64,000 nucleotides of DNA from Phormidium lacuna HE10JO (GTDB lineage Bacteria > Cyanobacteriota > Cyanobacteriia > Cyanobacteriales > JAAUUE01), in contig CALRPI020000022.1 of assembly GCA_943370025.1 (NCBI GenBank), positions 226-64,225 of the forward strand, in the 5' to 3' direction. This document shows positions 50,700-55,380 of this stretch, piece after piece (positions within the stretch are counted from its first letter, which is position 1; every line of letters starts with the position of its first letter). The translations under genes and the position numbers were made by a program. Below the pieces are notes generated by a model. The model was not told where the DNA came from. It saw only the letters and a program-made list of their open reading frames with translations, and did not search any database.

Positions 50700-51119
50700 A
50701 TGGATGAGCCACAGGATTTTTTGGGGAGTAGGGGTAAGTCTGATCTGGAGGCAAGTCTTGATCCCCAACTGGTCAACCAGATGCAAAAGCTACATCAATT
50801 AACTGTCTATGGTCGATGGTTTTTTGTCATATTCCTGTGGTTGTCGATCGCTCCTTGGAGTTTATGGAAACTGCGCGCAGAGATTGCCCTAGGGCAAGAT
50901 TATTTTACTTGGGTCTTGGTGCGGTACACGATCGTCTATAATCGCCTGCCTATTTTTGCCCTAGGCTTTTGTGTGGCGATGACTACAGCGGTGCTCGTCT
51001 GGCAGAGCCGGAATATTTTATTTGGACTCCCCAAGACGGAAAAACAGCGTCTTCTGCAACAGGTAATAAAAATCTCCCAGCAGGGAAAGTCTCATCCCCT
51101 CTGGAAGTTTATTCAGTAG
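50700..51119 (+). CDS. Hypothetical membrane protein
   Basis: 139 aa with two hydrophobic helices (WFFVIFLWLSIAPW and IFALGFCVAMTTAVLVW). Confidence 0.5.
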   Translation: MDEPQDFLGSRGKSDLEASLDPQLVNQMQKLHQLTVYGRWFFVIFLWLSIAPWSLWKLRAEIALGQDYFTWVLVRYTIVYNRLPIFALGFCVAMTTAVLVWQSRNILFGLPKTEKQRLLQQVIKISQQGKSHPLWKFIQ

Positions 51120-51273
51120 CGATCGTCCCTAATCTCACCACGTCACAAATCACTGCGAATATTAGCTAGAATGTTGTAGTGCCACAATTGATAGGCGATC
51201 GCTCAAATTAATAAGCGCAAATGATTATATTACAGACAATTTGCAAGAATATACTAACTTAGACTCTGAGTAT

Positions 51274-51501
51274 ATGAATATCAAGCTAGATTTGCCCAAT
51301 CTATTAGAGCAAGAGTTATCTTTGGAAGCTACAAGGCTAAATGTATCTCTTTCTGATTATATTCTCAAGGTGTTGATGCTGAGACGAGATTGGTTAGAGG
51401 AAGTGGAAGAGGCTGAAGACTTGGCAGATGCTAAAATTGCTTTACTGGAAGATGGCTTTATCCCTTTGACAGATGTTAAAAGGGAATTAGGAATTAGCTA
51501 G
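51274..51501 (+). CDS. Type II antitoxin (partner of the RelE/ParE toxin)
   Basis: Ends 1 nt before the toxin start codon. The acidic C-terminal half is typical of antitoxins. The ATG at 51274 is preferred over the TTG at 51241. Confidence 0.65.
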   Translation: MNIKLDLPNLLEQELSLEATRLNVSLSDYILKVLMLRRDWLEEVEEAEDLADAKIALLEDGFIPLTDVKRELGIS

Positions 51502-51762
51502 ATGTCATACGAAGTTGGGTTTAAGCCTTCTGCTTTGCGAGAAGTTCGGAAATTGGATGAGGTTACACGCAAGGCTATTATTTCAGAAGTTGAGTTGCTT
51601 GCTGATAATCCGCGTCCTGATGGTTGTAAGAAGCTAAAGGGAGAGAGTAATTTATATAGGATTCGGGTTTTAGGTAATTATCGTGTTGTTTATGAAATAC
51701 AGGATCGGCGGTTGATTGTTACTGTTGTTAAGGTTGGTCATCGGCGAGATGTGTATAAGTAG
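51502..51762 (+). CDS. RelE/ParE-family type II toxin
   Basis: 86 aa. LADNPRPDGCKKLKGESNLYRIRVLGNYRVVYEIQDRRLIVTVVKVGHRRDVY is the classical RelE/ParE core. Confidence 0.85.
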   Translation: MSYEVGFKPSALREVRKLDEVTRKAIISEVELLADNPRPDGCKKLKGESNLYRIRVLGNYRVVYEIQDRRLIVTVVKVGHRRDVYK

Positions 51763-51843
51763 CGATCGCCTCTAATCTCGAAAAGCTAATAATTTCTCAT
51801 ATCTCTTCTTGAATTTATTTGATTTGCAAATAACTTGATCTTG

Positions 51844-52848
51844 TTATGCTACAGACTGAGATTTTATCCTAGATGTTTGAGGCTTTCTTGTGTGATTTTT
51901 CCAATCTTCTACTGTTTTTCTGAATAGCCAACAATCTAAGGAAGTATCATCTACAAAGCCACGCAGTTCTGGATCAATCCAAATATGCAAAAGATCATTG
52001 CAGCCTATATTTTTAGCTGCTTGTTCAATATCTTGCCATTGTTGGATAAAGTTTTCCGCCCAAGATTTCTTATTGGTTACAGAGCGAACAAACTCTAGCC
52101 CTGCTTCGATCATTCTTTTTCCATTTGTACCACGAGCATTTATTGGTTCCCAGAAAATGACTTCAGGTTCAAATTTCATCACCTCCTGTAACAAATTTTG
52201 AAAATCTTGTAATTGCATTGTTGGTGGGGTGGGGGCGATCGCCACATATAACTTTATTCCCGCTTCATATCCCTTCATCATGGATTTGTAACGGTCAGAT
52301 GGAAGGGGAGCTGCGGGTTCAATTTTACGGCTAAGTTCATCATCAAGCATGGGCAAACTCATACCAACAGTTACATTAGGCGATCGCAAAATGTCTATAT
52401 CATTTATCCATAGAGGGCTACGAGTCAAAATCCGTACTCTTTTGTCATATTTGAGTAATACTTCGACAACTTGCCGAGTGATTGTTGCGGTTCGATGATT
52501 TTGGTAAGGGTCGGTTCCAGAACAGAGCATGACGACTCCTTGCCCTGATTCTGTCGTTTTCCAAGTTCTTTTACGACTAAGAGTTTCTTCTAGTTGTTCG
52601 GCAATACCTTCACGGACAAAGAGATATTTCCCCCAGTCCATTTGGGGATTATCAACGCCCTTGAGTGATAGCTGTGCTTGTCTGGTTCTGATCACTGGGG
52701 TTGAGGGGACATAACAAAATGTGCATCCATGCAAACAACCAGAAGCAACGTTAATCACGTAGTCACATAGTCCTTTTTTTCTTAGTGCGCTTTCCTGTAG
52801 AGGACTAGCGACAGTTTCAGTGCCTCTTACAGTATCCATAAAAAACAA
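51844..52848 (-). CDS. Radical SAM enzyme, SplB/COG1533-like (DNA-repair-photolyase-type fold)
   Basis: 334 aa. The CxxxCxxC cluster in INVASGCLHGCTFCYVPS lies near the N-terminus, followed by CSGTDPYQ, as in COG1533-type radical SAM proteins. Confidence 0.75.
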   Translation of the reverse strand: MFFMDTVRGTETVASPLQESALRKKGLCDYVINVASGCLHGCTFCYVPSTPVIRTRQAQLSLKGVDNPQMDWGKYLFVREGIAEQLEETLSRKRTWKTTESGQGVVMLCSGTDPYQNHRTATITRQVVEVLLKYDKRVRILTRSPLWINDIDILRSPNVTVGMSLPMLDDELSRKIEPAAPLPSDRYKSMMKGYEAGIKLYVAIAPTPPTMQLQDFQNLLQEVMKFEPEVIFWEPINARGTNGKRMIEAGLEFVRSVTNKKSWAENFIQQWQDIEQAAKNIGCNDLLHIWIDPELRGFVDDTSLDCWLFRKTVEDWKNHTRKPQTSRIKSQSVA

Positions 52849-52869
52849 ACCTTAGATATTTGAAAGTTG

Positions 52870-52923
52870 TAGAAAAAACTTTAATATGACTGTATAGTAC
52901 ACTATAGTACACTAGAAAAAACT
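52870..52923. promoter_or_regulatory. Direct repeats in a divergent promoter region: TAGAAAAAACT (x2, 43 bp apart) flanking TATAGTACAC (x2, tandem)
   Basis: tagaaaaaact at 52870-52880 and 52913-52923. tatagtacac at 52893-52902 and 52903-52912. Lies between the radical SAM and TcmP-like genes. Confidence 0.4.
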
Positions 52924-52949
52924 ATGTTGACAATGTTGGGGAAGTAAAA

Positions 52950-54209
52950 ATGTCAGAAAATAAGACTTTTTGGAACTCTGATGGAAGTCATCTGCCAGAG
53001 GTAGAACCCCATACAAAAGCTAAACATAGATTGGTTGAAGAATATATCCAGAATTGGATTGTGACGCTTTGCGGCAATAACATCGGTAAGCGTAAAAAAG
53101 TCATGATCATAGATGGCTTTTGTGGTGGCGGTATGTACCGTGATCCTGAAAATGGGGAAATGTGGGCTGGTTCTCCAATACGAATTATTCAAGCAGTCGA
53201 AAAGGGATTAGAACGAGTCAAGAGAGAGAAATCCAAGCCAGATTATAGCCTGCAAGCGAAATACATTTTTATTGATTCCAATAAAGATCACTTAGAATCT
53301 CTTAAGGTTCACATGAGAGGTAACGGATTAGATAGCTATTTAAATGATCCTGAGAAGTGTGAATTAATTCATGGCAAATTTGATCAAAAATTAGACCTTA
53401 TCCTGTTGGAAGCAAAAAAATCAAAATGTTCATCATTTTTCCTCTTAGATCCATTTGGTTATACTGATGTGTCCATGCAAAATATGAGAGATATTATTGA
53501 TCTCAAAAAATCAGAAATACTCTATACATTCATGATTGAATTTGTAACTCGATTTCTTAAGGAAAGAGATGGCAAGCTCAAGAAGGCTTTTGAAAAAGTT
53601 TTAGAGGCTGATAGTTACTACGAAATAGAGACTAAATTTAATAGCACGCCCGCTCAACAAGAATGGTTAAAAAATCAAACTCTGAATCTATTTCGCAAAA
53701 GGACAAATGCTGATTTTGTGTACGGATTTTCTCTGCTACATAATCAATCGCTAGTTAAATATTATTTGATACATTTAGCAAGTAGGGTTGTAGCTCAAAG
53801 AGTCATGAAGTCAGCAATGTGGGTAGAAAATAATTTAGATTTTTTATGTAGACATCATGATCAGGTTTATGGAATGGGACATAAAAGTATCTATTACTAT
53901 GAAGACCAAAATTTTCCTCGTCTTTTTGATGTTAAACACACAAATACTCAATCTTGCATAGAGAAGTTAGATGAAGACCTAATGCCATTGATATATAGTG
54001 GAGAAGGGGTTCAATTTTCTGATCTTGAGCTTCAAACAATACAAAGAAATCCAGCCACTATTAGACATTATGCTGAATTTGTTAATCAACAAAGAGATGC
54101 TAAAGAACTTGAAGTTATAAGAGATGGAAAAATCACAACCTCTAAACAAGTTAAACCAACTGATATTATCTTGAGGGCTAAATACAAGCAGACCAAATTA
54201 TTTATATGA
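52950..54209 (+). CDS. TcmP-like (three-Cys-motif partner protein family) Rossmann-type protein
   Basis: 419 aa. Ordered motifs HTKAKHRLVEEYIQNW, IIDGFCGGGMYRD, GSPIRI, FIDSNKDHLESL and FFLLDPFGY match my recollection of TIGR04474 TcmP. AT-rich, with no HIP1 sites. Confidence 0.55.
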   Translation: MSENKTFWNSDGSHLPEVEPHTKAKHRLVEEYIQNWIVTLCGNNIGKRKKVMIIDGFCGGGMYRDPENGEMWAGSPIRIIQAVEKGLERVKREKSKPDYSLQAKYIFIDSNKDHLESLKVHMRGNGLDSYLNDPEKCELIHGKFDQKLDLILLEAKKSKCSSFFLLDPFGYTDVSMQNMRDIIDLKKSEILYTFMIEFVTRFLKERDGKLKKAFEKVLEADSYYEIETKFNSTPAQQEWLKNQTLNLFRKRTNADFVYGFSLLHNQSLVKYYLIHLASRVVAQRVMKSAMWVENNLDFLCRHHDQVYGMGHKSIYYYEDQNFPRLFDVKHTNTQSCIEKLDEDLMPLIYSGEGVQFSDLELQTIQRNPATIRHYAEFVNQQRDAKELEVIRDGKITTSKQVKPTDIILRAKYKQTKLFI

Positions 54210-54432
54210 ATTTTATTATGATTTGAATATCAAATAACATACTACGTTCTAACAAAAAAATCTTGAAATACTAGGATTAATATCAATGTCGTATAGCGAA
54301 TTTAAGACATCGCTCAAGTACAGAAAAAATTTGGCTTGACGGTGAAAACAAGTTGTAATAACTATAGTCTAACCCTAAGATAAAGCTTATTGGACTGTAT
54401 TTATTTATGGGCTATTTTCTTGACCCCACAAC

Positions 54433-55380
<948 letters not shown>

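Follow-up and report, generated by a model that had tools for sequence, protein, structure and literature searches.

What do two divergently transcribed genes, one for a radical S-adenosylmethionine (SAM) enzyme and the other for TcmP, a three-Cys-motif partner protein, do together in a small accessory islet of a cyanobacterial genome? The genes in question lie at positions 51,844–54,209 of a 64,000-nucleotide stretch of the Phormidium lacuna HE10JO genome (contig CALRPI020000022.1), referred to hereafter as the window, and had been described in a first-pass annotation as a candidate nucleic acid modification or defence module. Both open reading frames (ORFs), of 334 codons on the minus strand and 419 codons on the plus strand, were found where that annotation had placed them, with a spacer of 101 bp in between, and every motif quoted in it was recovered from the translations (GCLHGCTFCY in the first protein; HTKAKH..YIQNW, IIDGFCGGGMY, GSPIRI, FIDSN and LLDPFGY in the second). 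We conclude that the window locus is an ordinary, intact member of a recurrent and previously undescribed variant of the TcmP system, in which a radical SAM enzyme of the spore photoproduct lyase (SPL) type replaces DUF5131, the canonical partner of TcmP.

The 419-residue protein belongs to the TcmP family, as had been proposed from its motifs. It matches TIGR04474 at 176.6 bits (cutoff 53, E = 8.7e-52), with residues 20–293 covering positions 1–262 of the 263 in the profile, and carries a GMT-like winged helix-turn-helix (wHTH) domain of the PF22560 type (31 bits, cutoff 27). Reading this "GMT" as Gamma-Mobile-Trio was rejected, as the paper describing that trio shows no link. Of the PADLOC models, those for PDC-M30A match the protein at E-values of 1.7e-24, 5.1e-23 and 2.5e-21, identifying it as an A component of that candidate system, and PDC-M41A is matched as well. 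The AlphaFold2 model is confident (pLDDT 88, pTM 0.89; pLDDT 88–96 in the wHTH region, residues 331–410), and its core shows the beta/alpha strand order of class I methyltransferases. In Foldseek comparisons with the PDB the best match was RlmJ, the 23S rRNA m6A2030 methyltransferase (E = 3.8e-6, TM-score 0.51 normalised to RlmJ), with further matches to TrmM, TYW4, PRMT5, the RlmJ-like DUF519 protein LPL1258 and the m6A DNA methyltransferase PacII. The earlier impression that IIDGFCGGGMY resembles a methyltransferase motif I is supported. Searches of the PDB by sequence or profile with TcmP returned no solved relative, and the profile of RsmD gave a weak match.

Few residues are universal across all TcmP subtypes, including those partnered by DUF5131: K25 in the N-terminal helix, D55, G59 and G61 of motif I, an aspartate or glutamate at position 109 at the end of beta-2, and D167 and G170 at the site of motif IV. 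These can be recognised as a putative SAM-pocket constellation, and the combination of a Rossmann fold, a glycine-rich motif I and an acidic end of beta-2 is that of a class I SAM-dependent methyltransferase. Motif IV reads D167-P-F-G170 in the window protein and DPFG, DQYG, DQKG or DENG across subtypes, with an aromatic residue at position 3 or 5. The wHTH domain is the least conserved part of TcmP (42% identity, compared with 51% for the core) and is missing from the short subtypes B and C. Altogether the family comprises 3,652 representatives at 50% identity. A comparison by eye with RlmJ, a member of the DUF519 family, reveals a common order of motifs (an N-terminal helix with K-H, D-x-x-x-G-x-G-x-Y, GSP, an acidic residue closing beta-2 and D-P closing beta-4). 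However, RlmJ of E. coli has DPPY where the window protein has DPFG, TcmP adds the wHTH domain, and RlmJ is a solitary housekeeping RNA enzyme, while TcmP is paired.

The 334-residue protein belongs to the radical SAM superfamily (PF04055, 40 bits against a gathering threshold of 29.5) and does not match PF07505, which places it in a lineage other than that of the canonical TcmP partner. Its nearest sequence families are PA0069 (99.5 bits), TIGR04470 or "radical SAM mobile pair protein B" (65.6 bits) and Rv2578c (65.4 bits), all of them, like the window protein itself, uncharacterised enzymes of the COG1533 type; it is a member of none of these, since the respective cutoffs of 360, 410 and 430 bits are far from reached. 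The AlphaFold2 model is again confident (pLDDT 86) and has an SPL-like fold: the six top matches in the PDB are all SPL structures, at E-values from 3e-7 (TM-score 0.55 for that top match) to 3e-6 and TM-scores of 0.55–0.57 over ~318 columns. The lineage suggested beforehand, COG1533/SplB-like and distinct from Gp37/Gp68, is therefore supported by profile and fold alike. By sequence the resemblance is faint. The SPL family profile PF20903 was not passed (13.5 bits against 27, with residues 26–50 alone aligned), and a PDB sequence search returned matches to the cluster motif only (E = 0.7).

SPL, a radical SAM enzyme built as a TIM barrel, works on a base pair that is flipped out in DNA. SplB shares with the window protein this fold and membership of one RadicalSAM.org megacluster, but the two are only 14–15% identical. 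SPL acts alone, whereas the window-type enzyme is nearly always found with TcmP. Compared with SplB, the window-type enzymes have a sole extra universal cysteine, C28, upstream of the cluster motif. Together with C38, C42 and C45 it is invariant in all cyanobacterial, fused and haloarchaeal homologues; T112-D113-x-Y115, E234-P-I-N-x-R-G-x-N242 and H288-x-W-x-D292 are likewise retained from cyanobacteria to haloarchaea. Identity of the enzyme across cyanobacteria is 65–70%, and its family carries the name "DNA repair photolyase" at JGI.

Hundreds of homologues were found for each of the two proteins, almost all of them cyanobacterial, and many contigs were common to both lists. A pattern scan built on the alignment of the radical SAM protein, covering one genome for each of 185,579 species, led to 112 confirmed relatives and yielded 80 loci from cyanobacteria, one Sericytochromatia metagenome-assembled genome (MAG) and three unclassified MAGs. 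A TcmP gene of the window clade stands immediately upstream of the radical SAM gene in 56 of the 78 loci with a called radical SAM ORF, co-directionally in 36 and divergently in 20. Most of the apparent exceptions have a divergent gene for a protein of 280–310 residues instead, which is itself a TIGR04474 member (213–217 bits for type B; 56.6 bits for type C of Pseudanabaena). By clustering, the partner is a long TcmP in 51 loci and a TcmP of type B or type C in 10 loci each, which makes 71 of the 80 loci; among the other nine, three are cut at a contig end, two have no called radical SAM ORF, and four (L024, L053, L072 and L074) are genuine exceptions. A third conserved gene was sought in these loci and none was found.

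The two proteins have also been inherited together. In 39 full-length loci of the long type the pairwise identity matrices of TcmP and of the radical SAM protein correlate at r = 0.82, a value not attained in any of 2000 permutations, and mean pairwise identity is 48% for TcmP and 69% for its partner. Beyond these loci, TcmP adjoins two paralogous radical SAM genes on haloarchaeal megaplasmids, each product being ~40% identical to that of the window; a DEAD/DEAH helicase gene adjoins the pair in Haladaptatus, and a Nostoc conjugative plasmid carries a divergent pair with type-B TcmP. In this survey the SPL-like variant was seen only in cyanobacteria and haloarchaea. Some genomes hold several copies, two of them (L017 and L026) in one MAG. 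The pairing is not due to chance, and the co-occurrence on which the first-pass annotation had staked its proposal extends from the scanned loci to the haloarchaeal megaplasmids and the Nostoc plasmid.

Several loci depart from the simple two-gene layout. The arrangement with one TcmP and two paralogous SPL-like genes is seen at L092 (2257–6047) and L093 (910–7409), and the longer haloarchaeal radical SAM proteins have an N-terminal extension with a zinc-ribbon-like CxxC...CxxC spacing. In Calothrix sp. NIES-2098 (L098, 1–858) a second radical SAM gene lies ~1 kb past the paired one and ~2 kb from TcmP. In Symploca (L074, 3742–4557) the radical SAM gene is divergent not from TcmP but from a SAM methyltransferase of the LCM/TIGR00027 type, another methyltransferase-fold partner, followed by a small ATPase-like gene, possibly of the ParA type.

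That DUF5131 (Gp37/Gp68) is the canonical partner of TcmP, as the first-pass annotation had indicated, is seen in phages and plasmids. A Gordonia temperate phage encodes gp42, a full-length TcmP with wHTH domain (annotated "methyltransferase"), directly after its immunity repressor and convergent with gp41, a DUF5131 protein (338 bits) that matches both PDC-M30B and PDC-M41B, with PADLOC B-component scores of 351–366 bits. From these matches it follows that PDC-M30 corresponds to long TcmP with DUF5131, and PDC-M41 to short TcmP with DUF5131. The DUF5131 partner is present in eight of nine TcmP loci on viral contigs, where one TcmP is 38% identical to that of the window, and pCAR1 carries, between insertion sequence (IS) elements, an integrase gene followed by DUF5131 and then TcmP. 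At the window, the gene adjacent to TcmP is not a PF07505 member and has no PADLOC match at E ≤ 0.1. Six long-type cyanobacterial TcmPs of the window clade were sampled, and three of them are paired with DUF5131 and three with the SPL-like enzyme. We conclude that the SPL-type partner is not peculiar to the window but recurs among cyanobacteria and haloarchaea in place of DUF5131.

The canonical and the SPL-type pairs have much in common: a TIGR04474 A component, a self-contained two-gene module of variable order and orientation, and a B component with a three-cysteine cluster. The canonical module is carried on prophages, plasmids and islands. The B components differ in that the window protein is a PF04055 enzyme of the SPL/COG1533 type with CX3CX2C, while DUF5131 has CX6CX2C and a length of about 250 residues. 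MJ0683-like, DUF5131 and SPL proteins have been assigned to one RadicalSAM.org megacluster, Megacluster-5 (PMC9477430). Our own hhalign comparison of the SPL-like enzyme with DUF5131 was collinear over 215 columns spanning the cysteine cluster and strand motifs but not significant (P = 0.009, 4% probability), and for this reason the relationship between them rests on the published megacluster. As partners of a single TcmP family, DUF5131 and the SPL-like enzyme behave like sister lineages that can replace each other. The cyanobacterial radical SAM clade was not found among IMG/VR viral contigs; annotated phages yielded distant radical SAM proteins only (≤31% identity), and a copy in the Acidianus two-tailed virus has no annotated TcmP or methyltransferase neighbour. 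Two loci in this set deserve mention in their own right: at L099 (2032–2975) a frameshift breaks the radical SAM gene paired with TcmP P0027 into two ORFs (residues 4–107 and 103–316), the gene being either a pseudogene or the product of an assembly indel, and in Chroococcus (L103, 4324–7287) a DUF5131–TcmP pair has TniQ and Cas6 genes next to it, possibly the sign of a CRISPR-associated transposon.

Exchange is apparent on the TcmP side as well. Blastn homology of the window to L006 and L009, where the same long TcmP occupies different places in the genome, is confined to a 2.45-kb segment that runs from the stop codon of the RelE/ParE gene to 4 bp beyond the TcmP stop codon (Table 1). With ten Pseudanabaena-type loci that have type-C TcmP, homology extends over the radical SAM gene only and ends near 52895, within the intergenic region, of which the half proximal to the radical SAM gene is kept in all Pseudanabaena-type loci and the half proximal to TcmP is specific to the TcmP subtype. 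In two Pseudanabaena-type genomes one and the same site, flanked by the gene for pyruvate formate-lyase (pflB) on one side and those for its activase (pflA) and adhE on the other, holds a long-TcmP pair in L091 (3000–13169) and a radical SAM gene with type-C TcmP in L001 (2996–9762), and therefore the TcmP half has been exchanged in place. The cassette is, as judged from these alignments, discrete and mobile, and its chromosomal sites differ even among Pseudanabaena loci.

We suggest that the two genes form a self-contained mobile module whose products would act jointly on nucleic acid, most likely DNA, and install a covalent mark by two SAM-dependent chemistries; this is the reading we favour, tentatively and at somewhat short of an even chance. 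The two proteins would cooperate physically, with TcmP as the targeting and substrate-presenting subunit. SAM would be bound in its Rossmann pocket by D55-x3-G59-x-G61, D109 at the end of beta-2 and the motif-IV-like D167-P-F-G170, nucleic acid would be docked through the C-terminal winged helix, and a flipped-out base would be presented, and possibly N-methylated in the manner of RlmJ-type m6A formation. The radical SAM enzyme would cleave a second SAM reductively on the [4Fe-4S] cluster held by C38, C42 and C45, and the resulting 5'-deoxyadenosyl radical could abstract hydrogen either from that base or from the freshly installed group, as the two characterised SPL-fold enzymes do with thymine derivatives in DNA. 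Specificity would lie with the fast-diverging, exchangeable TcmP, and catalysis with the conserved radical SAM enzyme. To mobile elements and the cells that harbour them, the mark may be of use as an epigenetic label of self or as a shield against restriction.

DNA is proposed as the substrate because SPL-fold enzymes act on DNA and because of a fusion protein in a Hormoscilla MAG (L072, 6318–9854), in which Dcm C5-cytosine and Dam N6-adenine methyltransferases are followed, within 1178 residues, by a radical SAM domain 62% identical to that of the window (~280 further residues are unassigned). The fusion gene lies in the early/replication module of a mobile element, beside primase and repressor genes. 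The location of TcmP–DUF5131 pairs in the lysogeny module of the Gordonia prophage and beside the pCAR1 integrase also points to DNA. The two characterised enzymes with the SPL fold, SPL and gp53 of phage M6, both have DNA bases as their target (PMC8989533), SPL being a repair enzyme. Gp53 is a post-replicative isomerase in thymidine hypermodification and was described as the first radical SAM enzyme that installs a DNA modification (PMC8989533). It resembles the window protein in its SPL fold, its radical SAM class and its carriage by a mobile element, and it performs one step of a multi-enzyme base modification. However, sequence similarity between the two was not detected (gp53 is absent among phage matches at E 1e-5), and neither a 5-hydroxymethyldeoxyuridine kinase, nor an aGPT-Pplase, nor a pyridoxal phosphate enzyme, all present in the M6 gp53 cluster, is found beside the TcmP–radical SAM pair.

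A number of observations weigh against such a modification module. TcmP lacks the canonical (D/N)PP(Y/F) motif, its universal pattern being D-x-x-G with no fixed aromatic residue, and methyl transfer is for that reason not assured. Alignment of TcmP with RlmJ profiles by hhalign gave P ~0.03 and a probability below 2%, with just the N-terminal helix and motif I aligned; the likeness, as it emerges from the model, is structural only, and RlmJ and TrmM are themselves RNA enzymes. The Dcm-Dam-radical SAM fusion is a singleton among 5.8 billion proteins. Among the flanking ORFs of the cyanobacterial loci there is no cognate nuclease or reader gene beside the pair, and Nostocaceae keep the pair in stable synteny next to pntAB, which looks more housekeeping-like than arms-race-like. 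Literature searches gave no experimental study of TcmP, DUF5131 or PDC-M30/M41 (literature naming PDC-M30 lies outside this negative result); what mention there is of TcmP and DUF5131 is confined to tables of genes and one list of families.

A role in modification would not preclude one in defence, and the module could also act autonomously against phages or plasmids as a variant of PDC-M30/M41, with TcmP recognising invading DNA and the radical SAM enzyme damaging it without a nuclease, for instance by hydrogen abstraction leading to strand breaks or crosslinks. The matches of TcmP to PDC-M30A/M41A, and of its canonical partner to PDC-M30B/M41B, point in this direction, but the PDC systems are unvalidated candidates. 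So does the company that some copies keep: the Gordonia pair directly follows the immunity repressor, the usual place of prophage defence genes; the copy on the Nostoc plasmid has BREX-1, a CHAT-TPR gene and an IS element as neighbours; a table of putative transcriptional units of S. meliloti lists TcmP directly under the Hna defence helicase; a helicase gene adjoins the pair in Haladaptatus; and toxin-antitoxin modules flank several copies, that of the window included. Enrichment of defence genes, for which the first-pass annotation had suggested a test, found no support among the nearest neighbours of cyanobacterial pairs, a heterogeneous set that varies between genera (the 119 flanking ORFs yield 167 Pfam families, of which no family occurs in more than four loci and PIN in three). 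The quick divergence of TcmP and its swapping between subtypes would suit an arms race, but the stable synteny in Nostocaceae would not, no mechanism for discriminating self from non-self is evident in a two-gene system, and homologues in early/replication modules of mobile elements fit self-protection better than host defence. We regard such autonomous defence as unlikely.

The remaining explanations are less probable again. In one of them the SPL-like enzyme would reverse a base lesion, such as a thymine adduct formed under UV or desiccation, or an alkyl lesion, and TcmP would be a lesion-recognising, base-flipping partner rather than a methyltransferase, a role for which its degenerate motif IV would be suitable. 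The top structural match is indeed a repair enzyme, the JGI name points the same way, the radical SAM protein is highly conserved, the pair keeps a stable synteny in Nostocaceae, and the hosts, cyanobacteria and haloarchaea, are light-exposed and often desiccation-tolerant. We consider repair improbable nonetheless, as the SPL profile failed, the distribution is sporadic (the 112 relatives in all the species scanned), copies reside on plasmids and, even in Pseudanabaena alone, at differing chromosomal sites, some genomes have more than one, several TcmP subtypes are swapped in place, and the interchangeable partner, DUF5131, is typical of phages and plasmids. Slightly more doubtful still is modification of rRNA or tRNA, in which TcmP would be an RlmJ/TrmM-like N6-adenine methyltransferase and the radical SAM enzyme would add a second modification on the same nucleotide. 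The order of a methyltransferase before a radical SAM enzyme has precedents in tRNA pathways, as with Trm5 and then TYW1, and the top folds for TcmP (RlmJ, TrmM and LPL1258) are RNA m6A methyltransferases, to which the weak RsmD match may be added. On the other hand, the pair is accessory, mobile and present on plasmids and phages, Dcm and Dam DNA methyltransferases form a fusion with one homologue, the substrate of the two characterised enzymes with the SPL fold is DNA, and the high diversity of TcmP subtypes would be unexpected given a conserved RNA target.

Joint modification of DNA, the reading favoured here, could have a wider reach. TcmP with the SPL-like enzyme, and by extension TcmP with DUF5131, may be a two-enzyme machine for new DNA chemistry, in which one subunit, of methyltransferase fold, would present a base or methylate it and the other, the radical SAM enzyme, would then elaborate, crosslink or remove that group; at this breadth we hold the proposal to be possible but rather unlikely. 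No more than two radical SAM enzymes acting on DNA are known, SPL and phage M6 gp53, both with the fold predicted here. If the proposal were true, the outcome would be either a post-replicative modification of DNA bases of a new kind or an inactivation of foreign DNA by radicals that needs no nuclease, in both cases a class of chemistry new to DNA modification or defence, and the PADLOC candidates PDC-M30 and PDC-M41 would be assigned a function. The TcmP–DUF5131 pair is far more widespread than the pair described here, and TcmP genes of both Bacteria and Archaea reside on phages, conjugative plasmids and genomic islands. Partner exchange and the few universal residues turn what was an annotation curiosity into a testable hypothesis of DNA modification by two enzymes with two SAMs, and the system as a whole is a promising place to look for new DNA chemistry.

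Table 1. Features of the cassette and its immediate surroundings in the window (positions in the window; "." marks features without strand).
Feature	Position	Strand	Evidence or remark
Two-gene cassette	51761..54213	.	Extent by blastn homology to L006/L009; low GC throughout
SPL/COG1533-type radical SAM gene, 334 aa	51844..52848	-	PF04055 40 bits; AlphaFold2 pLDDT 86; SPL fold match
Codons of the C38-x3-C42-x2-C45 motif, predicted [4Fe-4S]/SAM cluster	52714..52737	-	Invariant across homologues
Divergent intergenic (promoter) region	52849..52949	.	Carries TATAGTACAC x2 at 52895-52914
TcmP gene, 419 aa	52950..54209	+	TIGR04474, PDC-M30A, AlphaFold2 model, RlmJ fold match
Rossmann SAM-methyltransferase-like domain, residues 20-293	53007..53828	+	TIGR04474 span; beta/alpha order in model
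C-terminal GMT-like wHTH, residues 326-391	53925..54122	+	PF22560 31 bits (cutoff 27)
ParE/RelE toxin gene, neighbour upstream of the pair	51502-51762		PF05016, 50 bits
RelB-like antitoxin candidate	51241-51501		Weak match
Predicted membrane protein, 139 aa, between secF and the toxin-antitoxin cassette	50700-51119		No family assignment

In the window itself two details of the radical SAM gene call for comment. Homologues begin at the position of M4, and the true start is therefore probably the ATG at 52839. At the other end, the stop codon (51844–51846) results from a CAA to TAA nonsense change, accompanied by a 3-nt deletion just upstream, relative to the closest homologues of 354 residues. 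The change costs the protein ~20 residues of a variable, low-confidence C-terminal tail and is probably harmless, because many homologues lack that tail.

The intergenic region offered little in the way of regulatory signals. The 10-bp tandem duplication of TATAGTACAC was considered as an operator and rejected, being private to the window genome, since L006 and L009 have a single copy. Promoter-like hexamers on both strands of the region did not exceed the shuffled expectation, and a terminator scan gave the same result. Terminal inverted repeats of 17 nt (51815–51831 and 54221–54237) were likewise discarded: by our own estimate they are at chance level for AT-rich DNA, and the right arm lies outside the region of homology.

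The description of the pair as an accessory cassette next to a RelE/ParE module, between housekeeping genes, proved accurate. GC content is 0.32–0.41 over 51000–54500, against about 0.46 in the flanks, the PF05016 toxin gene ends at the cassette boundary, and the outer neighbours of the islet are the genes for SecD and SecF and those for GDP-sugar enzymes. A 22-nt direct repeat (51115–51136 and 51758–51779, 20 of 22 positions identical), which contains the cyanobacterial HIP1 palindrome GCGATCGC, brackets the toxin-antitoxin cassette, and its right copy is the conserved terminal sequence of the radical SAM cassette in all close relatives. This configuration suggests that the toxin-antitoxin module was inserted, or recombined, at the repeat site.

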